DNA of 64,000 nt from Eubacteriales bacterium (GTDB lineage: Bacteria; Bacillota; Clostridia; Oscillospirales; CAG-272). Below the pieces are notes generated by a model that saw only the letters and a program-made list of their open reading frames with translations, ran no database searches and had not been told where the DNA came from. The stretch spans positions 4,122 through 68,121 of the forward strand of contig JAZNER010000071.1 in the NCBI GenBank assembly GCA_045588675.1, given 5' to 3'. Below, piece by piece: positions 48,947 through 64,000 of this stretch (its first letter is position 1; every line of letters starts with the position of its first letter). A program made the translations under genes and the position numbers.

Positions 48947-49693
48947 CTATCCCAATTCATTCACTTCCGTCGGTTCTGTGTCGGTTGAAACCTCTTCGCT
49001 TGAATCAATTTCAGGTGCTGTGGTTTCGATTTCAGTATCACTTTCAGTAGTCGTTTCTTCGGTGGCGGTTTCTTCAGTAGTTGCTTCTTCAGTAGTTGCT
49101 TCTTCAGTAGCTGTTTCGGTAGTTATTCCTTCGGTAGCTGTTTCTTCTGCAGTCGATTCTTCCGGAGCTGTTACCGGCGTCGATTCTTCCATATTCAAAT
49201 AGTATGTATCGTTCTTAAGTGTTCTTTCGGATTCGGCTTTACTTGAAACACCCCAACAAGTAATTATTTCTATTTCTTTATCTTCGCTGAACCTCAGTGT
49301 AAAGGTAATAACATTTTTCCCCGGCAAGGTAGATACCTGCTCTGTATAACACGAAATATCATCTACAACAAAAACGCAATATGCAGAATTTGCAGAACCG
49401 TCGGCTCTTATTGTAATCACATAGTCCTTATTTTTTTCAAAAGTATATTTCTCAATTATATTGGTATCTTCAGTTTCACCGCTTTTTACGGTAACTGTCA
49501 CATCGCAGTGTGCCGATTGAATATTATTTGCAGACGAAGATACATCCGCAAAAAACCACGCGAAGGTTGTCGAACAAAGAGCTATCATACAAAAGAGAAT
49601 GCCAAAAACAGAAATCGTAATACTTTGCTTAAAAGCTTTGTCTGTCAAATTTTCTTTGTCGGAGCCAAATATTATATTTTTAATTTCTTTCAT
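48947..49693 (-). CDS. Secreted protein with a SipW-cognate-type signal peptide and a Thr/Glu-rich repetitive tail
   Basis: The signal region is ITISVFGILFCMIALCSTTFAWFFADV. The C-terminal tail is ATEEATTEEATTEETATEETTTE. GGAGG lies before the ATG. Confidence 0.75.
   Translation of the reverse strand: MKEIKNIIFGSDKENLTDKAFKQSITISVFGILFCMIALCSTTFAWFFADVSSSANNIQSAHCDVTVTVKSGETEDTNIIEKYTFEKNKDYVITIRADGSANSAYCVFVVDDISCYTEQVSTLPGKNVITFTLRFSEDKEIEIITCWGVSSKAESERTLKNDTYYLNMEESTPVTAPEESTAEETATEGITTETATEEATTEEATTEETATEETTTESDTEIETTAPEIDSSEEVSTDTEPTEVNELG
49040..49155 (-). repeat. Imperfect in-frame tandem repeats of about 15 nt that encode the Thr/Glu-rich tail
   Basis: Units of ttcttcagtagttgc recur head to tail on the + strand. 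Confidence 0.7.
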
Positions 49694-49849: not shown

Positions 49850-51607
49850 TTAGTTGTTTGGATAAACAACGGTTACACCGTCATAGGTCTTCAGACCGGA
49901 AACACCCTGTCCGCCACCAAACAACTGATCAAATACGATGAGTACATTATGCGACTCGTCAGTATTGTGGTTACAAGCGGAGAGATCAATACCGTCCGTG
50001 CCGGTACCTGCTTCAACACGTGCGTACTTGTATTCGCCGGGACCGTTATAACTACCAGCCCCAAGATCGGCATCTTCACAATAATGATAGTTTACCCAAT
50101 CACCATAGATAACCTTTACGTTTTCGCAAGTAACATAGCCAGTGGGATCAGCAACTCCATTCACACCGTCAACATGACCGATCAGCATACCACTGTAACG
50201 GTAGAGCCAGTACTGATAATTCGCTGCAACGTCATTGATTGCGTCAAGCTGGCAAGCAACGGTAATGTCCTTGAACGTTACATTGTTACCGGCGTGAACC
50301 AAACCGACAACACCACCGAGGCGAACATCATAGGTGCCCCAAAGAGGACCGATAACGGTATCTTCATCAACTGCAATATTGGTGAAAGAACAGTTACCAT
50401 AGCACTCAGCTGCAACACCGCCGGCAGAGTTATTGTAAGCAATCAAAGTTGTATTGGAAATTATGATATCAGAGAATGTAGTATCAACAGCATTACCTAC
50501 AACACCTGCTGCTTCATTTCTTCCGCTGGAGATGTATGCATCGGCAACAGTCACATTTTTAATGGTAGCACCATTGGTATAAGCAAAGAGGCCATAATAT
50601 TCGCCCTCATACTGCCATGCGTTAAGGTCGCTCTGCTCGTACATATTAGAAATTGTGTGTCCCTGACCGTCAAAAACGCCATTAAATGATTGACCGTTTG
50701 CAGAATGACCAATCGGATTGAATGGAATGGAAGCAAGGTCTATATCACTATCCAGTTTAATTGTTTTGCCTGCAAAATTATTGCCGCCGTCTACAAGAGA
50801 AGCTAAGCCAGCAACGGCTTCCGCAGTGTTCAACGTAAACTCTGTATCTGTATCATTGTACCACGAGGTATCAGCGGTGCCGTCCCAAACATCAGCAGTT
50901 GCAAGTTCGGGATATGCAGCATCCTTATCATACTGGTTGCCGAAGCTATCGTTCTCATAAGTAAATTGAGTTGCAAGAACATTGATGCCGAAGGTGATTG
51001 TGGGAATATCGGTGCCGTTGTGGTTAGCCTCGTTGCCAACGCTTTCAGCCATATCGACCTTTACGATCAGATACTTGGAAGTACCGGGCAGCAGCATTTC
51101 GTCAGCTCCAAGAACATTTGCGTTTTTAAAGGAAGCTGTATTGGTGTACTGCAATGTGCTTTCGTCGCCGAAAGCCACTCCAAGCAGAACATCGCCCATT
51201 GCCCCAGTATCCATAATAATCGAATCAACGGTAAGAATGTCTGAGAGAACGATATTAGCACCGTCTTTAGTCTTACCGATGGTCTCGTTAACAATGTTCA
51301 TATTGGCATTGTATTTCAAAGCCAAAGTACCATTGTTCTTAATACGGAGAGCGACTACCTCTGTGTGACCGGGCTCCCAAAGTCCCTTCTGGAACAGATC
51401 GGTTGCACCGTCAAGTTCGTTCCAGTTTTCACCGTCAAGCGTATACTCAACAACAATGTCAAGATTGCCTGCGGTAATCACGTTGCTGCCGGAAGCAGCA
51501 CTGTCTGTAAACCACGCGAACGTCGTGCTAAGCAGCATGGAAAAGCAAAGGAGCAGTGCCATGACGCTTGCAAGGAGTGCGCGCTTTGTGGATTTTGTGT
51601 TAGTCAT
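49850..51607 (-). CDS. TasA/camelysin-like N-domain protein with a SipW-cognate signal peptide and a GLUG-type beta-helix C-domain (585 aa paralog)
   Basis: The signal is KRALLASVMALLLCFSMLLSTTFAWFTDS. The TasA-like block is GNLDIVVEY...WEPGHTEVVALRIKNNGTLALKY. The C-domain has WDGTADTSWY...FNGVFDGQGHTISNMY and AGGVA/LGGVVG repeats. Confidence 0.75.
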   Translation of the reverse strand: MTNTKSTKRALLASVMALLLCFSMLLSTTFAWFTDSAASGSNVITAGNLDIVVEYTLDGENWNELDGATDLFQKGLWEPGHTEVVALRIKNNGTLALKYNANMNIVNETIGKTKDGANIVLSDILTVDSIIMDTGAMGDVLLGVAFGDESTLQYTNTASFKNANVLGADEMLLPGTSKYLIVKVDMAESVGNEANHNGTDIPTITFGINVLATQFTYENDSFGNQYDKDAAYPELATADVWDGTADTSWYNDTDTEFTLNTAEAVAGLASLVDGGNNFAGKTIKLDSDIDLASIPFNPIGHSANGQSFNGVFDGQGHTISNMYEQSDLNAWQYEGEYYGLFAYTNGATIKNVTVADAYISSGRNEAAGVVGNAVDTTFSDIIISNTTLIAYNNSAGGVAAECYGNCSFTNIAVDEDTVIGPLWGTYDVRLGGVVGLVHAGNNVTFKDITVACQLDAINDVAANYQYWLYRYSGMLIGHVDGVNGVADPTGYVTCENVKVIYGDWVNYHYCEDADLGAGSYNGPGEYKYARVEAGTGTDGIDLSACNHNTDESHNVLIVFDQLFGGGQGVSGLKTYDGVTVVYPNN

Positions 51608-51639: not shown

Positions 51640-53178
51640 TTAGCCCTTGCGGTAAACTTCAATGCCGTCAATATTGATGATAGCAACACGACCCGAGTTC
51701 ATCTTGCCGGTAGTACCATAGGAACCGTTATAGGTGGTGTTGTTAACATTGATCGTACCGCCAGAGCTGAACACCTGGAATGCCAATGCGTTTGCATCGG
51801 AACCCGCGTAGACCTCACAGTTATTGATAGTCAAAGTAGCACCGCCTGCGACTGCAACAGCGTGAGACTTTTCTGCCTTGATAATGCAATTTTCGATAGT
51901 CATATCACCCATAGCATATACAGCAGGCTGCATGTTCTTGGTGTTTTTCGCAGTAATGGTAGCATCCTTAACAGAAGAACCTTCGGGCAGAAGCAGACCG
52001 GTCGTTGCTTCAAAAGTACCACCGTTGATCTCTACGCTGAGATTGCTTCCATCATAATAAGAGCAATCCAATACATATCCGTTAGCTGCGGTGCTCGTAT
52101 AATTAACATCATTCAGAACAATCTTGATTTCACCGTCACCGTCAGGCTTAATCAAAGTAGAACCTGCATCGTCAGAAATGAAGCTACCGCCATTGATTTC
52201 GATAGTAGCATTCGCCCCTGCGGCAACATCGACCAATCCGTTCTTGCCCAGCTTAACTTCTTCGTCAGTTCCTTCGATTTTTACAGTAACATCGCTTCCA
52301 GAAGCTACGAAGAAAGCACTATCGAGGGCGGAGGCATCCATATCAAAACCGTTCAGATCAATCGTAACATTGTCGGCAACAGCAATAGTTTCCGTCAAGG
52401 AAATGTCAGCCTCAAACTTTACGCTCTTACCCTCTGCAAGAGCATCGGAAAGACCTGCTGCATCAACCACAGGATACTCCGCGTCTGCATCATACTGATT
52501 ACCGAAGCTATCATTTTCATAAGTAAACTGAGTAGCAAGAACATTGATACCGAAGTTGATGGTAGGAATGTCTGTACCATTGTGGTTAGCTTCGTTAGCA
52601 ACAGCTTCGTCCATATCAACCTTGATGATCAAATAGTGCTCTACACCGGGAGCAAGCTCAACATCACTGCGAAGAATGTTACCTGCTTTGAATGTAGCGG
52701 TATTTTCATAAGCCACGCTACTTTCACCGTTAAATGCAAGCATAAGTGCAATATCACCAACACCCATATCATCGTTAGCCTGCTGAACAAGAGTACTTAC
52801 GGTAAGAATGTCTGAGAGAACGATATCAGCACCATCCTTAGTCTTACCGATGGTCTCGCTGGCAATGTTCATATTGGCAGCATATTTCAGAGCCAAAGAA
52901 CCATTGTTGGTGATACGGAGAGCGACTACTTCTGTGTGACCGGGCTCCCAAAGTCCCTTCTGGAACAGATCGGTTGCACCGTCAAGCTCCTTCCAGATTT
53001 CGCCGTCAAGCGTGTACTCGACAACAATGTCAAGGTTGCCTGCAGTGATTACATTGCTACCTGAAACAGCGCTATCTGTAAACCACGCGAACGTCGTCCC
53101 AAGCAGCATGGTAAAGCAAAGGAGCATTGCCGTGATGCTTGATAGAAGTGCGCGTTTTGTTGAATTTTTGTTAGTCAT
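51640..53178 (-). CDS. TasA/camelysin-like N-domain protein with a SipW-cognate signal peptide and a different parallel beta-helix-like C-domain (512 aa paralog)
   Basis: The first roughly 235 aa are almost identical to the 585-aa paralog. The C-terminal half has repetitive beta-strand units (VTIDLNG, ATIEINGG, LSVEINGG, LTINNC). Confidence 0.75.
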   Translation of the reverse strand: MTNKNSTKRALLSSITAMLLCFTMLLGTTFAWFTDSAVSGSNVITAGNLDIVVEYTLDGEIWKELDGATDLFQKGLWEPGHTEVVALRITNNGSLALKYAANMNIASETIGKTKDGADIVLSDILTVSTLVQQANDDMGVGDIALMLAFNGESSVAYENTATFKAGNILRSDVELAPGVEHYLIIKVDMDEAVANEANHNGTDIPTINFGINVLATQFTYENDSFGNQYDADAEYPVVDAAGLSDALAEGKSVKFEADISLTETIAVADNVTIDLNGFDMDASALDSAFFVASGSDVTVKIEGTDEEVKLGKNGLVDVAAGANATIEINGGSFISDDAGSTLIKPDGDGEIKIVLNDVNYTSTAANGYVLDCSYYDGSNLSVEINGGTFEATTGLLLPEGSSVKDATITAKNTKNMQPAVYAMGDMTIENCIIKAEKSHAVAVAGGATLTINNCEVYAGSDANALAFQVFSSGGTINVNNTTYNGSYGTTGKMNSGRVAIINIDGIEVYRKG

Positions 53179-53300: not shown

Positions 53301-55190
53301 TTATTTGTTGTTGTAAATAACTTTTACACCATCGTGTGTTGGAGATCCGTAAACACCTTGACCTCCTCCGTAAAGCTGGTCGAATGTACATTCAATAAAG
53401 TGATCCTCACCTGCGTTATGAACATGATTATCGTCGACAACTTCATTTCCGTTTGCATCAGTAGGATGTCCGTATCTAGGATTTGAATAAGCGCTGTTGC
53501 TGACACCGGCTTGAACTCTTACATAAGGCCAACTTGTTCCTGCAAACTCGCAGTAGGTGTAATTTGCCCATTCACCATAAGTAACGGTAACATTTTCGCA
53601 AGTCAGCTGAGGAGCATCTGCATATGTAGTGCCATCAACTACTACAGTCTTACCGGGATTGCCGATCAACATACCGCAACGGCGGTATGCATACCACTGA
53701 TACGAAGAGGTAACATCGTTGTACGCATCTATGCGGCAAGCAACATTACAATCTTTCATGTAAATCGTTGCACTTCCGCCTGCTCCGCCTATTATACCGC
53801 CAGTAGAGTTGTCAAAATCTCCCCACTGTGCTGCGATGGTGGTGGAAGCATCTACATCACAATTAATGTACTGATGGTTACCGCTCGCCCAACCAACTAT
53901 GCCTCCTGCATAGTACTGATAGTCTGCGCCTTTTGAGTTGCTTACTTTGATATTTTCAAATGTGCAATCTCCGTAAGCTGTGGCAGCAACGATACCAACT
54001 ATAGCAGATTCACCCGAAATGTCAGCACCATCCATATTCAAATTCTTAATGGTGGCATCCTCAACCATTCCAAACAGACCAAGGCCAAGATCTCCGTAGT
54101 AGTAACCGTTATTAAGCTCCCATGTGTTCTGGCTCAAATTCTTTATCGTATGGCCTTGACCGTCAAACGTACCGGTAAATGCCTTGTCTTGTCTATACGA
54201 GCCTATGGGATCAAAGCATATATTATTAAGATCTACGTCCTCATCCAGCTTAACAGTTTTTCCTTCAAATGTTACGGGCAGAGTTATCTCTGATGACGCG
54301 TCAGCGGGAATAGCCGCTGTGCCGTCAACGAGGGCTGCAAGTCCTGCCAAGGCCTCTGCACTATACAGAGTAAATTCGGTTGCCTCTGGATTTTCTAAAT
54401 ACCAAGAAATATCAGCAGTGCCGTTCCAAATGTCAGGAAGCTCGGGATATGTAGCATCCTCGTCATAATCACTACCGAAGCTATCGCTTTCATATGCAAG
54501 CTGTGTAGCAACCGCGGTCAGAGTGAAATCGATCTGGGGAATATCTGTTCCGTTGTGATTTGCCTCGTTGGTAACCGTAGTGGGCATAGAGATCACAACA
54601 AGAACGTAAGCAGAACTGTAAGCGCCGTTTGTGGCGTCGTTAGCGGAGAAAGCAACACCGTTCTTGATTACGGCGATTTCATCCTTCAAGGAAGCTACAC
54701 CAGAGTTAGCGGCGCTACCCCACGCAAAGCTATCAAGGCTCTCACGGGTGGTGTAGAAGTTGCTCTCCATTTCAGTGGAAGTGGTAGTCATATATTTAAC
54801 TTGCAGATAATCGGAAAGGCTGAACTTTTCGCCTGCCTTGTTTGTCCCCTGTTTTTCGCTTGCAACATTTACGGCAAGGTCATAGCGGAAAGCAAGAGAA
54901 CCGAGATTTTCAACCTTCAGCCATACAGCCTCGGTGTAGCCTGGCTCGTAAAGAGCATCTTTGCCGAAAAGAATTGTGCTTTCCGTTACTTCCGTCCATT
55001 CGGTGTTCTCTGCACCGTAGGGCTTATAAGACAGTTTCATATCCAGATTACCTGTCTTAATGATGTTGTTTCCGCTGGTTGCGGAATCTGTGAACCACGC
55101 GAACGTCGTCCCAAGCAGCATGGTAAAGCAAAGAAGCATCGCCATGACGCTTGAGAGTAGTGCGCGCTTTGTTTGTTTTGTTTTAGTCAT
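53301..55190 (-). CDS. TasA/camelysin-like N-domain protein with a SipW-cognate signal peptide and a GLUG-type beta-helix C-domain (629 aa paralog)
   Basis: The signal is KRALLSSVMAMLLCFTMLLGTTFAWFTDS. The N-domain is more divergent. The C-domain is homologous to the 585-aa paralog (WNGTADISWY...FTGTFDGQGHTIKNL). Confidence 0.75.
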   Translation of the reverse strand: MTKTKQTKRALLSSVMAMLLCFTMLLGTTFAWFTDSATSGNNIIKTGNLDMKLSYKPYGAENTEWTEVTESTILFGKDALYEPGYTEAVWLKVENLGSLAFRYDLAVNVASEKQGTNKAGEKFSLSDYLQVKYMTTTSTEMESNFYTTRESLDSFAWGSAANSGVASLKDEIAVIKNGVAFSANDATNGAYSSAYVLVVISMPTTVTNEANHNGTDIPQIDFTLTAVATQLAYESDSFGSDYDEDATYPELPDIWNGTADISWYLENPEATEFTLYSAEALAGLAALVDGTAAIPADASSEITLPVTFEGKTVKLDEDVDLNNICFDPIGSYRQDKAFTGTFDGQGHTIKNLSQNTWELNNGYYYGDLGLGLFGMVEDATIKNLNMDGADISGESAIVGIVAATAYGDCTFENIKVSNSKGADYQYYAGGIVGWASGNHQYINCDVDASTTIAAQWGDFDNSTGGIIGGAGGSATIYMKDCNVACRIDAYNDVTSSYQWYAYRRCGMLIGNPGKTVVVDGTTYADAPQLTCENVTVTYGEWANYTYCEFAGTSWPYVRVQAGVSNSAYSNPRYGHPTDANGNEVVDDNHVHNAGEDHFIECTFDQLYGGGQGVYGSPTHDGVKVIYNNK

Positions 55191-55265: not shown

Positions 55266-55997
55266 TTATGTTTGAGCCGTCGTATCGTCGGCACTGTTTT
55301 CGGTCGTTAGTGTGAAATTTGCTTCCCCGCCCTCTTTCTTGGCAAGCTGTGCTTTGAGCTCAAGCAGCTCAGCCATCATACGCTGACTTTCAGCGCGTTC
55401 TTCCTCGAGCTTTGCTCTTTCAGCCTTCATTTCTTCCATTTGTTCCTTTTTATATTTGCGGAACAGGCGAACACAATTAAGCCCCTGTGAAAGAATAAGA
55501 AGCAGAAAAGGAACGAGAATACAAAGAATATATCCGGGTGTTGTTTTAAGAAAAGCAAAAAACAATCCTACCTTTGGTATTCTTCCCTGATATTTGCCAA
55601 CGACATATTCATGTGTAACGATAGTTTCATCATCGGTATTTGTGGTCGTACCGTAGGTAATAAATCCCGGGTTGCCATAAACGTCGGTTGTAAGCTTTCT
55701 GATTTTGTGTGTTACCGTTTCTCCAAAGCTGTTCGGATCTTGTGACAAAAAGGTTATGATGTCGCCTTCCTTCAGCGTTGCAGGATCTACATTTTTGGAT
55801 ATTGCTATATCACCTGCATCAAAATCAGTTGCTGACATTGAGTCGGTTTGCACTATAAAAAATTTAAAACCAAATAAATTTCTATCCGTTTGATTGAAGG
55901 TGTTTACCGAGAAAATGGTGAAAATCATCATTCCTACTGCTATTGCGACTATGGTCCATACCAACACGGCTTTTGCGATCTGTAATGCTTTTTTCAT
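55266..55997 (-). CDS. sipW: SipW-type (archaeal/ER-like) signal peptidase I with a C-terminal coiled-coil extension
   Basis: It has an N-terminal TM segment, a catalytic Ser context VQTDSMSA, GDIITF and His context VTHKI, and a second TM segment. The pattern matches B. subtilis SipW. A charged helical tail follows. Confidence 0.85.
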   Translation of the reverse strand: MKKALQIAKAVLVWTIVAIAVGMMIFTIFSVNTFNQTDRNLFGFKFFIVQTDSMSATDFDAGDIAISKNVDPATLKEGDIITFLSQDPNSFGETVTHKIRKLTTDVYGNPGFITYGTTTNTDDETIVTHEYVVGKYQGRIPKVGLFFAFLKTTPGYILCILVPFLLLILSQGLNCVRLFRKYKKEQMEEMKAERAKLEEERAESQRMMAELLELKAQLAKKEGGEANFTLTTENSADDTTAQT

Positions 55998-56007
55998 TCA
56001 GTCCTCC

Positions 56008-56556
56008 TTAATCACCAAAATCCATCTGTGGATTGTTTTGCTTTTGGGTTGCATTAGCTGTGATGTTAAAGGACACTGTCTGCCCCTGCGCGCTGTTATC
56101 AGTGTCGGAAGAAAAATAGAATTCGATATAAAGCGTCTTTTCTTCTCCTGCGGCAAGCGAGCTTACTGCAACCTTATCGGCTCTCAGCTCATTCATCGTG
56201 CCTTTGCAAAGAACAGTGCCGTCTTTTTCTTTAATAGTAACAGTAATGAAATCCTTGAGGGGACCCTCCACCTCGGTAAAATAAACGCGATACCACACAT
56301 CAAAGGATCCAAGATTAGCAATAGGAAATTCGCTTCGATATGTTCCGCCCGGTTCGTAAAATACATCTGTAACGTCAACTACCGGGTTGCCTTCGTTTAT
56401 CTTAAGCTCCACGCCCATACTCATGGCAAAACGATTGTTTCGCACACTGACAATTGAGCTTACCAAAGCCAAGCTGGTAATCGTCAGCCCACAAACAAGG
56501 AGAACAACGGTCGCGATCATAATATTAAGTTTTTTCTTCAGACTTTGTTCGTTCAT
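56008..56556 (-). CDS. Small TasA-like single-module protein with an N-terminal TM/signal segment
   Basis: 182 aa. After the hydrophobic segment, EPGGTYRSEFPIANLGSFDVWYRVYF and GEEKTLYIEFYFSS resemble the TasA/camelysin beta-sandwich pattern. AAGGAG lies before the ATG. Confidence 0.6.
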   Translation of the reverse strand: MNEQSLKKKLNIMIATVVLLVCGLTITSLALVSSIVSVRNNRFAMSMGVELKINEGNPVVDVTDVFYEPGGTYRSEFPIANLGSFDVWYRVYFTEVEGPLKDFITVTIKEKDGTVLCKGTMNELRADKVAVSSLAAGEEKTLYIEFYFSSDTDNSAQGQTVSFNITANATQKQNNPQMDFGD

Positions 56557-56571
56557 TCACCTATGTCTCCT

Positions 56572-58263
56572 TTACTGTAATTGCCACGAAAAATCGGCGG
56601 TAAGGCTTTCGCCTGCATATTCGTTACCGACCTCTGCGCCATTGGTGTAAACGGTTATTCGGTAATAGATCGGGGTGACGGTCTTGGCGTTTGCCGTCAC
56701 GCTCACGCCAACGACAGTACAATCCTTTATCAATCCGTCATACAAAATTTTGTCTTGAGCCTGGGGGATAAGCTGTTCAATTTTTACTCTTAATACCTTT
56801 GAAAGCTTTTGTGATGTGTCAACGGCGATATCAAAACAAACATTCTGTTTGCTATCGTGAGTGACCGAAACACAATAATACTGCTCTGCTCTGTCACCGG
56901 GCAACATATTCTTTACATCAAACGGGATATTAGCATAGCCATCCTTCGCCGTCAGCTCAATTGCCGTTGCTGTTACCGGCGGTTGGGGAGGAGAGGGCGG
57001 ACTTGGCGGACTTGGGGGATCTGGAGTATCCGGTGGCGTATAAGGCTTATCATATGCAACAAAGCTGTTGCTTGGCACTTTAAGCTGCTCGCTTGTTTCT
57101 TCCAGCGTCCAAGACAAATCGCACACAAGCTTGGTTTCACAATATTCTTCTGTCAATCCGTCTGCGGTAACAGTTACCTTGTAATACACCGTCGTTTTGT
57201 TGTTATCATTTTTGGGAAGCATATGCTCAACGTTGAGATCTTTGAGCAGTCCTTCGTAAAGCGTGTCGTTTCCGTCTTCGCCGACAAGCTCTACCTTGAC
57301 TTTCAGCACCTCGCCGAGCTTGCTGTCAAGCACGACCGCATTGTTGATAGCCACCTTGATGTCCTCTCCGTGTGTCACTTCAAAAGCGAAATATTTTGTC
57401 TGGCTGTCACCGTTTTTTATGTCCTTCATATCAAAAGCGGTGTTGTCGCCTTCGTTTACTTGAGAAAATTTCAAATCGGGATTTATTATCGGAGGAGAGG
57501 GCGGCGTCGGCGGGTCGGGAGGGGTTGCTTTGGAAACCGTAGTAAACTCGTGGTTTGCGACTGTGATATTATCCTGTCCCTCTATCCACCAAGACATATC
57601 CGCTATCAGCTTTTGTCCGTAATATTGATCATCAAGAGAAGCATCGAGATAAATCGTGATACGGAACAGATACTCTATTGTTGTATTTATGTCTGTGTTA
57701 AGTGCAATTTCAATCGCAGGCATATCTGCCAGCAAGCCGCGATACAGCAGCTTGTCGCCCTCTGCGCCGACAAGCTCAGCTTTAATATTCAATATCTCAG
57801 CAAGCTTTTGGAACTCCTCGTTTTCGCGTATAGTCATATCATATTTCAAAATGAAATCCGAGTTATATGTAGCAATCACACGATAGAAAATGCTCGCGCT
57901 ACCACCTTCGTCCATTCCTTCGATATAAAACGGGAGATTTTCCTCGTCGCTGCCTTTGCTAAATTCCAAATCAGCTTTTGAAATAACGACAGGTGGAGGC
58001 GGATCGATGACATTTCCCGGGATCTCCACAGAGCCGTGCGACACTTCTCCGCCCTGACAGCCACGTAGCGTTAAGCTTATTGAGGTAAGCGCTAAAATCA
58101 ATATTCCAATTATAACAGCAACTCTCTTCAGGTTGTTGATCTGTTTAACTGCTGCCAGCGGATCGTTCTTCCCTATTATTTTTTCAAATTTAGCAATAGA
58201 AAAAAATTTACCAATGCCTCGCCCCACAGAAGCTACGATATTTTGAAATTTGTTTCTTTTCAT
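56572..58263 (-). CDS. Membrane-anchored protein with three tandem TasA-like modules joined by Pro-rich linkers
   Basis: 563 aa with one TM segment (VAVIIGILILALTSISLTL). The three roughly 140-aa modules end in DMSWWIEGQ, CDLSWTLEE and ADFSWQLQ. The linkers are TPPDPPTPPSPP and TPPDTPDPPSPPSPPSPPQPP. Confidence 0.7.
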   Translation of the reverse strand: MKRNKFQNIVASVGRGIGKFFSIAKFEKIIGKNDPLAAVKQINNLKRVAVIIGILILALTSISLTLRGCQGGEVSHGSVEIPGNVIDPPPPVVISKADLEFSKGSDEENLPFYIEGMDEGGSASIFYRVIATYNSDFILKYDMTIRENEEFQKLAEILNIKAELVGAEGDKLLYRGLLADMPAIEIALNTDINTTIEYLFRITIYLDASLDDQYYGQKLIADMSWWIEGQDNITVANHEFTTVSKATPPDPPTPPSPPIINPDLKFSQVNEGDNTAFDMKDIKNGDSQTKYFAFEVTHGEDIKVAINNAVVLDSKLGEVLKVKVELVGEDGNDTLYEGLLKDLNVEHMLPKNDNNKTTVYYKVTVTADGLTEEYCETKLVCDLSWTLEETSEQLKVPSNSFVAYDKPYTPPDTPDPPSPPSPPSPPQPPVTATAIELTAKDGYANIPFDVKNMLPGDRAEQYYCVSVTHDSKQNVCFDIAVDTSQKLSKVLRVKIEQLIPQAQDKILYDGLIKDCTVVGVSVTANAKTVTPIYYRITVYTNGAEVGNEYAGESLTADFSWQLQ

Positions 58264-58303
58264 CGCTGTCCTCCTTTCTTAAAATCACATAGGAGTTATA
58301 ATC

Positions 58304-58594
58304 TTATTTCTTTTTCCTCGGTTGTAATAACATATATCCACAATCTGGGCAAATGGAATCTCCAGCTGTAAGGGGGGCGTTGCAAATTATGCAACGCGGC
58401 GCAGTCACAGCGTTCTCACATTTTACGCAAACAAGTGCCCCTTCGGGGATAATTTCTCCACAAGAAATGCAGGTGTTTACATTCTCAGCATAATAACTCG
58501 TTTTGCTTCTGATTTCCGTGATTTTTTCTGTTTTTTTTCTGTCTTTTCTTTTCAATTCTATCTCCGCGTACAATTTGTGTTGGTTTTTCCACAT
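58304..58594 (-). CDS. Small double zinc-ribbon protein (start uncertain)
   Basis: It has four cysteine pairs in CISCGE...CVKCEN...CIICNA...CPDCG. The only ATG gives a 110-nt overlap with the tetR 3' end and has no clear RBS. Confidence 0.45.
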   Translation of the reverse strand: MWKNQHKLYAEIELKRKDRKKTEKITEIRSKTSYYAENVNTCISCGEIIPEGALVCVKCENAVTAPRCIICNAPLTAGDSICPDCGYMLLQPRKKK

Positions 58595-59189
58595 CTTTAA
58601 AATATGTCGCCATCATACAGTATAGAACATTGAAGATATGCGGTGTATTGATATCGCTATCCTCGAGCTCTCCGTTATACACGCGGATGCCGAAATCTAA
58701 TAAGGTGGTAAAAACGCTGTGTAATATAGAAACGACGTCCGCTTCTTCCTTGAAGAATGGAGCCATTTCAGCTACTATTTCCCCAAAAAGCTTTTTATGA
58801 GCTTCAAGAGAGTGTCCCTTGAAATAAATTGAATAGTAATATCTTACATAGCAGCGGCACCGTTCCTCATTTCCCAGAATAAATCTCCATGCCATCAAAA
58901 AGAATTTGTACAGTCTATCTTTTGAATCAGATGTAAATCCGCCGAGCGCTTGAACTCCGTGCCGAAAAGCATAAAACAATTCGTTATCCAAGCAAACGAA
59001 AGCTGCTTCGTATAAGTTTTCTTTGTTTCCAAATAAACGGTAAATATAAGCCTCGTTCATTTTAAAGTCAGGCAACGACCCTCTGCAATGAGTCAACTCC
59101 TTTGTTGTCGCCTTTTCAAAGCCACCTTCGGCAATAAGCCTTATGGCGTTACTGATAAGTAATTCTTTAATCTCTGCTTCGCGTTTCAT
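58485..59189 (-). CDS. TetR/AcrR-family transcriptional regulator
   Basis: The N-terminal HTH is AIRLIAEGGFEKATTKELT with an all-helical remainder. GGAGG lies 10 nt before the ATG at 59189; the ORF is open to 59255. Confidence 0.82.
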   Translation of the reverse strand: MKREAEIKELLISNAIRLIAEGGFEKATTKELTHCRGSLPDFKMNEAYIYRLFGNKENLYEAAFVCLDNELFYAFRHGVQALGGFTSDSKDRLYKFFLMAWRFILGNEERCRCYVRYYYSIYFKGHSLEAHKKLFGEIVAEMAPFFKEEADVVSILHSVFTTLLDFGIRVYNGELEDSDINTPHIFNVLYCMMATYFKDVEKPTQIVRGDRIEKKRQKKNRKNHGNQKQNELLC

Positions 59190-59340
59190 TTCGGTCATAC
59201 CTCCATTTAATTTATACACCGAATTATTAACTGATTTCGCTAGGGCTTGTAGCAAACACTACACCGCGTCCTTAAAAAAATCCCTATCCTTGTAGGCACA
59301 TATTTAAGTATGCAGTTTTTGTTTGCTGAGAGTAAAAATG

Positions 59341-59393
59341 ACATAACGAGAGTTATGTCATTTGTGACAAAACATAACGAGAGTTATGTGATA
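59341..59393. repeat. Left inverted repeat (IRL), 53 bp
   Basis: It is the exact reverse complement of 59641-59693. It contains two copies of the 18-bp palindrome ACATAAC-GAGA-GTTATGT. Confidence 0.95.
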
Positions 59394-59402
59394 AAATATA
59401 AT

Positions 59403-59432
59403 AAAAAAAAGAGGGTTTGTTGCTTATCCCTC
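59403..59432 (-). terminator. Possible minus-strand terminator inside the switch
   Basis: On the minus strand, GAGGG plus a 12-nt loop plus CCCTC is followed by T8. The stem is weak at 5 bp. Confidence 0.35.
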
Positions 59433-59578
59433 GTTCAAAAAACGAAAAAAAGAGCGCAACGATAAAACTTTCGCCAAATTTTTTCAGAAAATTTGCACGA
59501 AAGGCGTTTTTGTTGCGCATTTTTTATGTCAAATTGAATAAACTTTACAGGGTGTCTTAATTTTTTTTGCGGAAGCTC

Positions 59579-59607
59579 TTGACTTTGCTTAAATTATGTG
59601 CTATAAT
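59579..59607 (+). promoter_or_regulatory. Near-consensus sigma-A promoter inside the putative invertible segment
   Basis: TTGACT (59579-59584), a 17-bp spacer, then an extended -10 TGcTATAAT with the -10 at 59602-59607. It currently points at the 3' end of the recombinase gene. Confidence 0.65.
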
Positions 59608-59640
59608 TCGCTATGTATCTGAAAAATGTTGGATACTTAA

Positions 59641-59693
59641 TATCACATAACTCTCGTTATGTTTTGTCACAAATGACATAACTCTCGTTATGT
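59641..59693. repeat. Right inverted repeat (IRR), 53 bp
   Basis: It is the exact reverse complement of 59341-59393. Confidence 0.95.
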
Positions 59694-59729
59694 TGCTTTT
59701 GTTCTCGATGTATTTACATCGGGACTTTT

Positions 59730-60572
59730 TTAAATAATGAGCTTCATATGCTCCATCTTACGCCTGTGCTCCGCTCCCGTCGTGACAATATAAATACGGG
59801 TAGTGTTGATGCTTGCGTGTCCCAAAATATCCGCAAGCTTCGCAATATCCTTTTCAATTCCATAAAAGGTACGGGCGAACAGATGACGCAGATTGTGCGG
59901 AAACACCTTGCTCGGTGCGACCTTTGCCTGCTCACACAGCGACTTCATTTCCTTCCATATATTATTGCGGCTAATAGGCTTACCTCGTCTGGTAATAAAT
60001 ATTGCACCCGAAGCGATCTTCTGCTCCTCGACATATCGGAGCAGTTTTTTCTTTAGCCCGGCAACTATGAAAATACGGCGGTTTTTTCCCTTACAATTAA
60101 CTACTGCTTCTCCCCGTTGCAACGATTCTACTGTAATATACTGCAGCTCGCTCACTCGAATCCCTGTTCCACAAATCGTTTGAATTATTAAATTCAACCG
60201 CTCATTGTGTTTTGCATTTGCCGCATCAAGCAATCGCAGATATTCCCCTCGGGTTAGTTCTTTTTCCTCTGAACAATAGGCTTCTCTTTGCACCTTGAAT
60301 TGCTTGACACAAAGATCATGCCAGCCGCAGAAGCGCAGAAATGAATTCAGTGCCGCGATCATAGAGTTTGCACTTGCAACGGCGTATGAGGAGCCGAGCT
60401 TGTTCTTATATTCTAACACGGTTTGCTTTGAGATCTCTGCTGTTCCGGCAAACTCGGCAAAACATCTCAAGTCCCGCATATATTTTTCAATAGTTGCCAC
60501 ACTTTTTTCTTCATCTGTCAAAAACAATTGAAATTCTTTAAATTTCTTTATTCCAACAACTCTTTTTTTCAT
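59730..60572 (-). CDS. Tyrosine-type site-specific recombinase (phage integrase family)
   Basis: Catalytic signature residues lie in GIRVSEL (Arg), HNLRH (His-x-x-Arg) and GHASINTTRIY (His...Tyr). AAGGAGAG lies before the ATG at 60572. Confidence 0.88.
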   Translation of the reverse strand: MKKRVVGIKKFKEFQLFLTDEEKSVATIEKYMRDLRCFAEFAGTAEISKQTVLEYKNKLGSSYAVASANSMIAALNSFLRFCGWHDLCVKQFKVQREAYCSEEKELTRGEYLRLLDAANAKHNERLNLIIQTICGTGIRVSELQYITVESLQRGEAVVNCKGKNRRIFIVAGLKKKLLRYVEEQKIASGAIFITRRGKPISRNNIWKEMKSLCEQAKVAPSKVFPHNLRHLFARTFYGIEKDIAKLADILGHASINTTRIYIVTTGAEHRRKMEHMKLII

Positions 60573-60778
60573 AAAGTACTCTCCTTTATTGGGTATTAAT
60601 GCTATTATTTCACCAAACAACTTCGAATAATACCGAAATCCTTGATAAAGTTACATAAATATCCTATCTGAACGCCAGAAATAAAGAAACAAAAAAAACA
60701 GAACGCTTCCGAGCGGTCAAGTGCTTTCAATTCAAAAATAATGAAGATATACCTGTGAAAGTCTGAAAATTAAGGAAT

Positions 60779-60820
60779 AAAAAAGCGGAGAAATCTTTTG
60801 ATTTCTCCGCTTTTTCTTTT
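60779..60820. terminator. Bidirectional terminator upstream of the recombinase gene
   Basis: An 11-bp stem GCGGAGAAATC/GATTTCTCCGC is flanked by an A-run and a T-run. Confidence 0.75.
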
Positions 60821-60911
60821 CTAAAAAGATCCGTGTTTAAAATCACGAGGATACACTTCCCCCCCTGGCGACGATAGAAGCTGCCCTTGTTTGCTATCTA
60901 CGGGTGCAGTG

Positions 60912-61505
60912 CTACACTAACAAACTAATATTTGCAAAAAGAATAAGCAACGGCAATGCAACAAAACACATAACAATTAACAAAACAATTCTTCGTTTGC
61001 TGCCTTTTGATACTTTTGCGTTGATATCCGGATAATATTTTCTCGATTTAGAAAGAAGAAACAGCGGCGCATGCATAAGCACTATTTTCCTTTTTCTCGT
61101 ATATATGATGGCATGACACCTATACTTCCTATACTTAGGGTTAAATAATTTTCGTCTTCTCGGTATTTTAATTTCATATTCCATTTTAACGATTTCGTTC
61201 CACTTAATAATGCCGTCTTTGTAGTGTATCCCATCATCATTTAAGACACAAATAATTTTTCCAAAAATGCGGCGATTTAGAACAGATAAGAAAACAAAAG
61301 GAAATGAACAGACGAGGCATCCTTCAAAACTAATCAAAAGACCTGAAAGCCATTCTGACAGTTGAAATTCACCGAATGTGAATTGGAAAACCAACAAACT
61401 GTAAGAAACCCAAACCGCACATGAAAGCAATACCAAGATAGGAACTGTAAAATATTGCCAACGAATTTTTGTGCCTTCTATTTTACTGAGTCGATTTGTC
61501 TTCAT
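60912..61505 (-). CDS. Hypothetical membrane protein (197 aa)
   Basis: It has two N-terminal TM segments, a basic soluble region and a C-terminal TM segment. AGAGGGAAAA lies before the ATG. I recognise no family. Confidence 0.5.
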   Translation of the reverse strand: MKTNRLSKIEGTKIRWQYFTVPILVLLSCAVWVSYSLLVFQFTFGEFQLSEWLSGLLISFEGCLVCSFPFVFLSVLNRRIFGKIICVLNDDGIHYKDGIIKWNEIVKMEYEIKIPRRRKLFNPKYRKYRCHAIIYTRKRKIVLMHAPLFLLSKSRKYYPDINAKVSKGSKRRIVLLIVMCFVALPLLILFANISLLV

Positions 61506-61902: not shown

Positions 61903-64000
61903 TGAAACACACCAACTGGACAGGCTTCAACAGCGGCGTATGGCAGGACGAGATAAATGTCCGCGACTTTATACAAACTAACTACAATGCCTATGAGGGA
62001 AATGCTGATTTTTTAGCTGCCGCAACCCCCCGCACTCAAGCATTGATGAAAAAAATACAGGGGCTTTTCGCCCTCGAAAGACAGTTCGGCGGCGTTCTGG
62101 ATATTGATACTGCTACTGTTTCTTCCCTCGCCAGCTTCTCGCCCGGATATGTGGACAAGGAGAACGAAATAATCGTAGGTATGCAGACCAACCGCCCACT
62201 CAAGCGCAGCGTCAACCCATTCGGAGGTATTCGTATGGTTAAACAGGCCTGTGAGGCATACGGCTACAAGCTAAGCCCGAAGGTTGAGGAGGAGTTCCGC
62301 TTCCGCACCACCCATAACGACGGAGTGTTCCGTGCCTACACCGACGAGATGCGCGCCGCCAGAAAGTGTCACATCATTACAGGCCTTCCTGATGCCTACG
62401 GCCGCGGCCGTATTATTGGCGACTACCGACGCGTTGCGCTCTATGGCGTAGATCGTCTTATAGAGGAAAAGATCAAGGATAAACAGAAGCTGGCAGAAAA
62501 GTGCTTCAACACCGACGAGATCCGCTTGGACGAGGAGCTCTATCAGCAGATAGCCTTCCTCGGTTATCTCAAGGAAATGGCTCAGATGTACGGCTTTGAC
62601 ATCAGCCAGCCCGCAGCAAACGCTCGCGAGGCTATTCAGTGGACATACTTTGGATATTTGGCCGCTATCAAGGAGCAGAACGGCGCCGCTATGTCGCTGG
62701 GACGCGTCAGCACCTTCTTTGACATTTACATTGAGCGCGATATGGCTAACGGCACTCTCACCGAGGAAGGCGCCCAGGAGCTTATGGACGACTTTGTTAT
62801 GAAGCTTCGTATCGCTCGTCATCTCCGCACCCCAGAGTACAACGAGCTCTTTGGCGGCGATCCTATGTGGATAACCGAGGTTGTTGGCGGTATGGGTGAA
62901 GACGGCAGAACACTTGTCACCAAGAGCAGCTTCCGTATGCTCCACACGCTCTACACTCTGGGTTCATCTCCCGAGCCCAATCTGACGGTGCTGTGGTCAA
63001 CAAAGCTCCCCGAAAACTTCAAAAAGTACTGCGCCAAGGTGTCAGCAGATACCGACTCTATCCAGTATGAAAGCGACGACCTTATGCGCCCGATATACGG
63101 CGACGACTATGCAATAGCTTGCTGCGTTTCGGCTATGAAGGTGGGTAAGCAGATGCAATTCTTCGGCGCAAGATGCAATCTGGCAAAGCTTCTCCTCCTG
63201 GCTATCAACGGCGGATACGATACCTCAAGCACTATGCACATCGGTCCACAGATGCCTGTGATGGACGGAGATACCCTGGACTATGACGAGGTCATGGCTC
63301 GTATGGAGATATATATGGCATGGCTGAGCCGTCTCTATGTTAACACCATGAATATCATTCACTATATGCACGATAAGTATGCCTATGAAAAGATTCAAAT
63401 GGCTCTTCACGATACAGATGTAGATAGATTTATGGCCTTCGGTATAGCAGGACTTTCTGTAGTGGCCGATTCCCTCTCTGCTATCAAGTACGCCAAGGTT
63501 GCTCCCGTCAAGAATGAAAACGGATTCATTGTTGACTTCAACACCACGGGCGAATTTCCCAAGTTCGGTAACGACGACGACCGAGTGGATCTCATCGCAA
63601 AGGATATGACTCACCGTATGATCGAGGAGCTCCGCAAGACCCCCACTTACCGCAATGCTATCCATACTCTGTCAGTGCTGACTATTACTTCAAATGTTAT
63701 GTACGGCAAGAACACAGGCGCAACCCCCGACGGCCGTCGCAACGCCGAGCCCTTCGCTCCCGGCGCTAACCCTATGCATAACCGCGAGGAAAACGGTGCT
63801 CTGGCTTCGCTTAACTCAGTAGCAAAGATAAGCTATGACGACTGCCGCGACGGCATTTCCAACACCTTCTCTATCACTCCCGAAGCACTGGGAAAAACCT
63901 ACGACGAGAGAATCGAAAATCTCGTTCACATTCTGGACGGATACTTTGCAAAGGGCGCGCACCACATCAATGTAAATGTACTGAACCGTGAAACGCTTAT
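61903..64000 (+). CDS. pflB: Formate C-acetyltransferase (pyruvate formate-lyase), N-terminal about 699 codons; 3' end outside the window
   Basis: It is not in the ORF track because it has no stop in the window. It has a GTG start 8 nt after GGAGG. Hand translation gives [28 protein letters not shown]...[26 protein letters not shown], which is canonical PflB. Confidence 0.93.

Follow-up and report, generated by a model that had tools for sequence, protein, structure and literature searches.

The 64,000-nucleotide stretch of an Eubacteriales bacterium analysed here (GenBank assembly GCA_045588675.1, contig JAZNER010000071.1; called the window below) very probably carries a site-specific invertible promoter, or inverton, which is driven by an adjacent Xer-like tyrosine recombinase and would act as an ON/OFF switch for an operon of SipW/TasA-type surface fibres. 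A 247-bp segment with an inner promoter is enclosed by inverted repeats next to the recombinase gene; this anatomy is conserved in related loci of gut and rumen Clostridia, and in nature the segment occurs in both orientations between flanks that stay collinear.

Anatomy of the switch

The segment is bounded by a perfect 53-nt inverted repeat, 59341-59393 being the exact reverse complement of 59641-59693. This had been claimed in a first-pass annotation of the window and is borne out by our reverse-complement comparison. The same annotation had the match end abruptly on all four sides, which holds for the inner sides, where pairing stops at once, but not for the outer ones, where 8 of the next 13 bases still pair and a repeat finder lengthens the arms to 66 nt at 92% (59328-59393 and 59641-59706). 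Each arm contains two copies of the 18-mer ACATAACGAGAGTTATGT, offset by 31 nt and with the spacer CATTTGTGACAAA between the copies. This 18-mer has four matches in the entire window, all of them at the switch locus, against 0.01 expected by chance. It is a near-palindrome, with 6-bp flanks ACATAA and TTATGT around the 6-bp centre CGAGAG; because this centre is asymmetric the core has a direction, and the cores of the left and the right arm point in opposite directions. Inverted repeats bounding a short segment, as in an inverton of the fimS type, are thus present both as 53-nt arms and as cores. Judging from the sequence, we take the functional unit to be the 18-bp core, of which the 53-bp arm is a doubled form; this corrects the 53-bp unit of the first-pass annotation.

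Within the segment, the near-consensus plus-strand promoter that had been annotated as aimed at the recombinase gene stands. It agrees with the consensus at 11 of 12 positions, has a TG extension of its -10 element, is the top-ranked promoter-like site of 58200-61000, and recurs in relatives, as TTGAyTT...TGTGnTATAAT, at the corresponding end of their inner segments; at the level of sequence, the segment thus holds an outward-facing promoter. As sequenced, the promoter faces the 3' end of the recombinase gene, which we call the OFF orientation, and its computed position after inversion is about 59455-59427 on the minus strand. An alignment of the inner segments, after turning all of them to a common orientation, reveals three conserved blocks, namely a central hairpin, the promoter, and a short hairpin at the transcript start (Table 1).

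For the central hairpin, the computed folding energy is -28.8 kcal/mol on one strand and -26.3 kcal/mol on the other (z = -3.6 and -3.5). In per-sequence folds rather than in an alignment fold, the hairpin is found in 31 of 32 distinct central regions, with U-runs after it in 37/39 cases on one strand and in 39/39 on the other. It looks like a bidirectional terminator and, being situated upstream of the promoter in either orientation, would halt read-through from the recombinase gene. The second terminator, outside the recombinase-side arm, has a T-run that overlaps the recombinase stop codon and lies within a fold of -33.2 kcal/mol (z = -5.9); it is kept in nearly all related loci, with compensatory changes in its stem and a mean of -11.6 kcal/mol. 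Its orientation is such that it stops transcripts leaving the switch toward the recombinase gene, so that the promoter in the OFF state would give only a short RNA of about 115 nt. For the recombinase gene itself, no terminator in its own direction was found ahead of the switch. The leftward block had previously been placed in a minus-strand hairpin plus T8 at 59403-59432, an assignment that does not survive: the fold is weak (-6.9 kcal/mol, z = -1.1, with 32 of 200 shuffles folding as well) and, in an alignment with relatives, sits in an 11-nt insertion peculiar to the window genome. From sequence conservation, the read-through blocks would instead be the bidirectional hairpin at 59454-59518 and the terminator outside the recombinase-side arm.

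The recombinase has an intact reading frame with Phage_integrase (94.3 bits) and Phage_int_SAM_1 domains, and its six catalytic residues (R, K, H, R, H and Y) each find their counterpart in an alignment with XerD and XerA. In every related locus with enough flank, a homologue of this recombinase adjoins the switch in the same direction. The nearest relatives of the window protein in the PDB are XerC-like 4a8e and XerA 5hxy, but it stays below the cut-offs of the XerA, XerC and XerD equivalogs (141 vs 220, 114 vs 335 and 116 vs 330 bits) as well as far below those of the FimB and FimE invertases (NF007370 and NF007371; 33.8 and 29.6 bits vs 221 and 222). An exact-protein look-up with either start codon returned no match. 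At 60780-60815, between the promoter region of the recombinase gene and the gene of a 197-aa predicted membrane protein (60912-61505; no Pfam match), there is a strong 16-bp hairpin preceded by an A-run and followed by a T-run, as in a bidirectional terminator, so that the recombinase gene appears to be a transcription unit of its own in the window.

Orientation and core number in related loci

Close homologues of the recombinase number in the thousands in gut metagenomes, the best 120 being 79-99% identical. Loci were gathered from contigs encoding chosen homologues and by scanning species-representative genomes and metagenomes with the two-core pattern. The former scan yielded 30 metagenome-assembled genomes (MAGs) from sheep, roe deer and human faeces, labelled as Clostridia, Eubacteriales, Acutalibacteraceae, Monoglobaceae, Lachnospiraceae and Candidatus Flemingiibacterium; the latter yielded 2 loci only. 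In all, 58 further complete cassette loci were obtained from metagenomes and MAGs of gut and rumen Clostridia, making 59 switches with that of the window. The 18-bp core is identical in every one of the related loci, the 3' end of the recombinase gene being about 77-82% and the inner segment about 70% identical to the window. In all 59 cases the flanks are collinear, with the recombinase gene directed toward the switch and the first downstream gene away from it. This first gene encodes a TetR-like homologue in nearly all loci, and genes for SipW and TasA-like proteins come next wherever the flank suffices.

With the flanks so fixed, the family of related loci shows both orientations in natural populations. 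The promoter points toward the operon (ON) in 29 switches and toward the recombinase gene (OFF) in 29, including the window, with 1 not placeable; this 29:29 ratio does not represent 58 independent events, many of the loci being one strain in several samples, and to that extent it weakens the case. In the 30 species-level MAGs, 17 are ON, 12 are OFF and 1 is not placeable. Such a co-occurrence of both orientations between collinear flanks matches the prediction of programmed inversion. The first-pass proposal of an invertible segment is thereby upheld in the comparison with relatives that it had called for, and so is its view that the sequenced state upstream of the TetR/SipW/TasA-like operon is OFF.

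Two pairs of loci differ by little else than the flip. L051 (OFF) and L054 (ON) agree at 398/400 positions upstream and 270/273 downstream of the segment, and in the inner segment at 242/243 when one is flipped, compared with 109/177 unflipped. For L028 (ON) and L032 (OFF), the corresponding figures are 120/123 and 257/259 on the two sides and 242/244 within the flipped segment. In these natural inversions, the change from collinear to inverted falls at the cores. The compared assemblies stem from different projects and assemblers and, because the repeats are only 18-24 bp long, there is no reason why an assembler should flip the segment by mistake. We therefore regard these sequence pairs as close to decisive for inversion. 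L028 and L032 are short contigs, 97.6-99.2% identical, which were binned as Monoglobaceae and Acutalibacteraceae, respectively, pointing to a binning error or a recent transfer.

Many of the recombinase contigs (e.g. L009-L013, L050-L055 and L069-L073) are only 1-2 kb long and end at or near a core, or about 200-300 bp upstream of the recombinase gene. The cassette thus seems to break metagenome assemblies, be it through mixed orientations, through sharing between co-resident genomes, or both. Short contigs that end at or near a core were not counted as evidence for mixed orientations, as the breaks may come from a repeat that several genomes have in common: there are breaks ahead of the recombinase gene as well, and genomes with differing flanks agree at 95-100% in the recombinase block.

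While the core is invariant, its number per arm is not. L001 and L002 have a single core in the recombinase-side arm, where the window has an exact 31-bp extra unit of spacer plus core. Given as cores in the recombinase-side and the operon-side arm, the 59 switches comprise 29 of type (1,1), 13 of (2,1), 9 of (1,2), 5 of (2,2) and 3 of (3,1). Core number varies even within two recombinase clusters (L056-L063 and L064-L071, with units of 31-33 bp): in one, the flanks and the inner segment are 100% identical, yet there are (1,2), (2,1) or (2,2) cores, and in the other, otherwise 100% identical sequences have (2,1) or (1,1). As core number differs among identical sequences, the number of units must change faster than point mutations arise. 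Furthermore, a given type of spacer occurs on either arm and beside either end of the inner segment, a distribution that would be expected if crossover were possible at any core, an extra unit being carried across with the flip. We know of no description of a variable number of crossover sites per arm for invertons.

Table 1. Features of the switch and of the genes to its left, in window coordinates
Feature	Position	Strand	Remarks
Recombinase gene (Xer-like tyrosine recombinase, 280 aa, presumed invertase)	59730-60572	-	transcribed toward the switch
Intrinsic terminator outside the recombinase-side arm	59703-59731	+	9-bp stem and T6; hairpin 59703-59724
Right (recombinase-side) arm	59641-59693		cores 59645-59662 and 59676-59693, CTCTCG orientation on the + strand; 13-nt spacer
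Invertible inner segment, 247 bp	59394-59640		both orientations between collinear flanks in relatives
Short hairpin at the transcript 5' end, just downstream of the -10 element	59615-59636	+	fold and conserved alignment block
Promoter, TTGACT, 17 nt, (TG)cTATAAT	59579-59607	+	11/12 consensus positions, extended -10
Central long hairpin with T-runs on both strands	59454-59518	both	inside the segment, upstream of the promoter
Left (operon-side) arm	59341-59393		cores 59341-59358 and 59372-59389, CGAGAG orientation on the + strand; spacer CATTTGTGACAAA
Leader, switch to first gene	59190-59340	-	weak hairpin and T7 59296-59274; palindrome GTAGTGTTTGCTAC 59262-59249
TetR-like regulator, first downstream gene	58485-59189	-	TetR_N (PF00440) 26.1 bits vs cut-off 24
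Small double zinc-ribbon protein	58304-58555	-	DZR 33.6 bits; homologues in many related loci
563-aa protein	56572-58263	-	no Pfam/NCBIfam match; related operons have a 59-73% identical homologue in this place
182-aa TasA/camelysin-family fibre subunit	56008-56556	-	Peptidase_M73 (PF12389) 32.4 bits vs 22.5
SipW-type signal peptidase I	55266-55997	-	TIGR02228 62.4 bits vs 51.85; SipW model E = 1e-19
Three large proteins with SipW-type signal peptides and TasA-like N-termini	53301-55190, 51640-53178, 49850-51607	-
248-aa protein, no family	48947-49693	-	no Pfam/NCBIfam match

The fibre operon, its leader and the proposed working of the switch

Nine co-directional minus-strand open reading frames lie to the left of the switch and reach 48947. 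That they comprise a tetR gene and a SipW/TasA-like operon had been recognized at first pass and is confirmed here by the reading frames themselves, by family profiles and by a fold match. The first of them, whose start we take from the sequence to be the ATG at 59189 behind GGAGG, has a TetR N-terminal helix-turn-helix (HTH) domain with a marginal score and no NCBIfam match. The zinc-ribbon gene that follows overlaps its 3' end by about 70 nt in another frame if TTG 58555 is the start, which is uncertain. The AlphaFold model of the 182-aa protein (pLDDT 79) has as its top match in the PDB the TasA fibre 8aur_A, determined by cryo-electron microscopy (E = 2.1e-5), the archaeal TasA-like filaments 7pnb and 7ueg also ranking high. 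In the three large proteins, TIGR04088 scores 19.9, 23.1 and 20.0 bits, at or just above its cut-off of 19, and Peptidase_M73 scores 24.3, 27.5 and 21.4 bits against 22.5, so that PF12389 exceeds its cut-off in three operon proteins. With a SipW-type peptidase and TasA/camelysin proteins bearing SipW-type signal peptides, the genes that the switch would regulate are, by profile and model, a SipW/TasA-type fibre locus. Inside the nine-gene block no strong promoter or terminator was found; such sites are weak there and no commoner than in shuffled sequence.

Between the switch and the first gene lies a leader with two conserved elements. A hairpin followed by T5-8 occurs, with compensatory variants, in 37 of 43 distinct leaders, at a mean of -4.6 kcal/mol and -2.8 kcal/mol in the window, and about 20 nt past it the palindrome GTAGyGTTyrCTA is found in 36 of the 43. 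Both are missing from loci without the TetR-like gene. A search of 58900-60900 against Rfam gave nothing near the gathering score, hence no known riboswitch in the leader. These elements suggest a second, conditional layer of control, composed of a candidate attenuator and a candidate operator for the TetR-like protein, and the ON orientation may therefore be necessary yet insufficient for operon expression.

In the mechanism that we propose, the 18-bp cores, with their two 6-bp arms around an asymmetric 6-bp centre, would be the crossover sites and, the cores on the two arms of the repeat being oppositely directed, recombination would invert the 247-bp segment rather than delete it. Read in order, this segment would hold a terminator that acts in both directions, then a strong promoter of the sigma-A type and finally a short hairpin at the start of the leader. 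In the OFF state, the promoter would fire at the recombinase gene, its transcript being halted at once by the terminator at 59703-59731, while the central terminator would stop read-through from the recombinase gene. In the ON state, transcription would start on the minus strand near 59420, cross the left arm and about 230 nt of leader, and then run on over the TetR-like gene and the SipW/TasA-like fibre operon as far as 48947. The flipping would be done by the recombinase, the window genome would presumably still switch, and the orientation of the segment would set the expression of the operon.

Several observations weigh against this account. The nearest relatives whose contigs reach the switch, L001 and L002, have a 99% identical recombinase and the same OFF orientation as the window. 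The central hairpin was absent from the RNAalifold output, both for the inner segment in full and for its middle portion. In the leader, the conserved weak hairpin with its T5-8 could end some or all of the transcription from the switch in the ON state, and the conserved palindrome could mark a separate regulated promoter.

The last two points are at the heart of the strongest, if still unlikely, alternative, in which the segment does invert but the operon has a promoter of its own within the leader, on which the TetR-like protein acts by way of the palindrome. Transcripts from the switch would then be ended by the leader hairpin and T-run, and the switch would only modulate the operon or would have the recombinase gene as its main target, by means of convergent transcription and a 3' untranslated region that differs with orientation, much as fimE is under orientational control. 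The frequency of hairpin and palindrome and their joint absence without the TetR-like gene speak for it, as do a weak TTTAGG-17-ACTAAT that overlaps the palindrome in the alignment of relatives and the lack, noted above, of a terminator that would end recombinase transcripts ahead of the switch. However, the leader hairpin is weak compared to the terminator on the recombinase side, an asymmetry which fits a switch that reads out on the operon side, and through this terminator the recombinase gene is protected from the promoter in the OFF state. Moreover, no promoter-like site of at least 9/12 exists in the window leader, and in some loci the switch stands ahead of other cargo, where both hairpin and palindrome are missing.

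It is quite improbable that the family inverts while the window copy is a frozen relic, permanently OFF. The single orientation seen for the window genome and its two closest relatives would agree with this, as would the absence from the window of the HTH gene that precedes the recombinase gene in most relatives, but the recombinase gene has an uninterrupted frame and codes for the full set of catalytic residues, the four cores are without a mismatch, neither the promoter nor either terminator is damaged, and the identity of the 53-nt arms is unexpected for decaying sites. We give almost no credence to a reading of the 353-bp unit as a miniature transposable element, or of the cores as mere operators, without any programmed inversion: while terminal inverted repeats are present, the near-palindromic cores are of a kind that dimeric regulators bind, and the block of recombinase and switch is 95% identical between loci with unrelated flanks, the core occurs at only one locus in 64 kb and once per genome in the 30 MAGs, with the same two neighbour genes, accompanies the recombinase even where the TetR-like gene is missing, is absent from viral contigs and phage records with weak partial matches in plasmid records, and coincides with the natural inversion breakpoints. 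The transposable element proper, for which the first-pass annotation had named many loci with target-site duplications as the hallmark, is ruled out by this distribution, as no such multiplicity was encountered. The inverton driven by its neighbouring recombinase thus remains the reading that we prefer.

The remainder of the window is ordinary chromosome, with genes for PriA, YidC, fucose isomerase and a sugar ABC transporter. At 62000-64000 the GC content is 51%, against 37-46% elsewhere, and the open reading frames there look like wrong-frame or antisense frames of a gene that runs off the window end.

A possibly portable cassette and its relation to known systems

In many relatives, genes for TnpV, a DUF6809 protein and an XRE-type HTH protein precede the recombinase gene; the window is without all three. 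A different arrangement is found in the eight loci L064-L071, all OFF, where the order is HTH, recombinase, the same switch, TnpV, DUF6809 and then variable genes (e.g. L064:2297-6840), which include an HsdM-type methyltransferase and an ATPase_2/DUF4143 protein, with an nSTAND NTPase on the opposite strand. By this gene order, the cassette is not specific to TasA loci, and other cargo may also be phase-variable. In addition, the block from TnpV through DUF6809, HTH and recombinase to the switch is 95% identical between L003:6693-9159 and L005:6694-9157, while both flanks are unrelated; the shared part begins about 80 bp ahead of TnpV and ends where the operon-side core does, at its outer edge. 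This suggests that the cassette moves between contexts, by horizontal movement or homologous replacement, or that it is kept unusually constant. The left edge of the TnpV-to-switch block shows no core-like site and no transposon-like end, only an ordinary promoter region.

An origin from a phage or a plasmid was considered and rejected. Viral contigs and phage records had no match to the cassette, and the plasmid collection gave only two weak partial matches, of 70-73% over 110-190 bp of the recombinase gene. These lie on large replicons of Subdoligranulum variabile (OY725857.1:159037-159229 and OY725846.1:52277-52390) and hint at related recombinases in a cultured relative. As a broader proposal, offered tentatively and with more doubt than conviction, the recombinase and its switch may form a portable, self-insulated phase-variation cassette that spread among gut Clostridia and came to be linked to different cargo. 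In most genomes this cargo would be a SipW/TasA-type fibre operon, and in others TnpV-DUF6809 followed by variable genes; the arms would be expandable crossover arrays in which all cores are active and whose copy number tunes switching rate or bias.

Among known systems, the closest parallel is fimS of Escherichia coli type 1 fimbriae, where a promoter segment between inverted repeats has the fibre operon downstream and a tyrosine recombinase gene as its neighbour. The likeness to fimS/FimB/FimE extends to the short length of the invertible segment, its inverted repeats, the inner promoter reading into a surface-fibre operon and the adjacent tyrosine recombinase. However, there is one recombinase gene here instead of two, and its product is Xer-like, with an N-terminal SAM-like domain and scores far below the FimB/FimE model cut-offs. 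Likewise, the arms are composed of 18-bp cores, often in tandem at 1-3 per arm, where fimS has single 9-bp repeats, one terminator is built into the segment and another lies beyond the recombinase-side arm, and the fibres are of the SipW/TasA type rather than chaperone-usher pili. With Xer/dif, the locus shares its nearest solved relatives, which are Xer proteins, and a dif-like site, in which short arms enclose an asymmetric centre of 6 bp; it departs from them in a recombinase below all Xer equivalog cut-offs and in sites that are paired and inverted around a promoter, whereas dif is single and situated at the replication terminus. As to the cargo, the tapA-sipW-tasA operon of Bacillus subtilis likewise encodes the SipW signal peptidase together with fibre proteins of the TasA family. 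Its expression is set by transcription-factor circuits (SinR/SinI and others), and not by DNA inversion.

In Clostridioides difficile, RecV-dependent switches are known for cwpV, flgB, cmrRST and pdcB, and RecV acts in trans on several distant sites (PMC9286219, PMC7446863). Common to these switches and ours are the clostridial host, the tyrosine recombinase, a regulatory segment that inverts ahead of genes for surface structures or motility, and the possibility of regulation after initiation. By description, to which this comparison is confined, ours differs in having its recombinase adjacent and one site pair per genome fragment, and TasA/SipW-type targets are not among the reported RecV switches. 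The first-pass annotation had traced the present architecture to fimS/FimBE, Bacteroides Mpi and RecV alike, which is apt for fimS/FimBE with its neighbouring tyrosine recombinase, but neither for Mpi, a serine recombinase that acts globally as a master invertase, nor for RecV with its distant sites. Invertible promoters of gut Bacteroidales control capsular polysaccharides, fimbriae and resistance genes (PMC8748976, PMC10403206). There, too, gut commensals derive surface heterogeneity from promoter inversion, with an orientation that can be read from metagenomes, but phylum and repeat motif are different, and the promoters are of the Bacteroides type instead of TTGACA/TATAAT.

In the literature, we found no report of the core sequence and none linking TasA, SipW or camelysin to inversion, though supplementary tables of inverton surveys may still list the locus; DeepInverton refers to biofilm functions in general terms only. 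While the fimS-type inverton is an already known kind, one that is Xer-like, insulated by its own terminators and widely conserved among uncultured gut Clostridia, with a SipW/TasA-type operon downstream and with variable arrays of crossover sites, appears to be new.

TasA-type fibres are the scaffold of Bacillus biofilms, with related fibres in archaea, and we know of nothing on the control of TasA-like loci in uncultured gut Clostridia. If our reading is true, these bacteria would hedge their bets on the production of surface fibres, which would affect adhesion, aggregation and recognition by phages and the host immune system. As the core is invariant, the ratio of ON to OFF should be readable from existing metagenomes across dozens of species, and could be compared between hosts, diets and disease states. 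The cassette is compact, with one recombinase, 18-bp sites and terminators where they are needed, and might serve as a genetic part for Firmicutes. Finally, its variable number of crossover sites offers a testable idea on how switching rates evolve.

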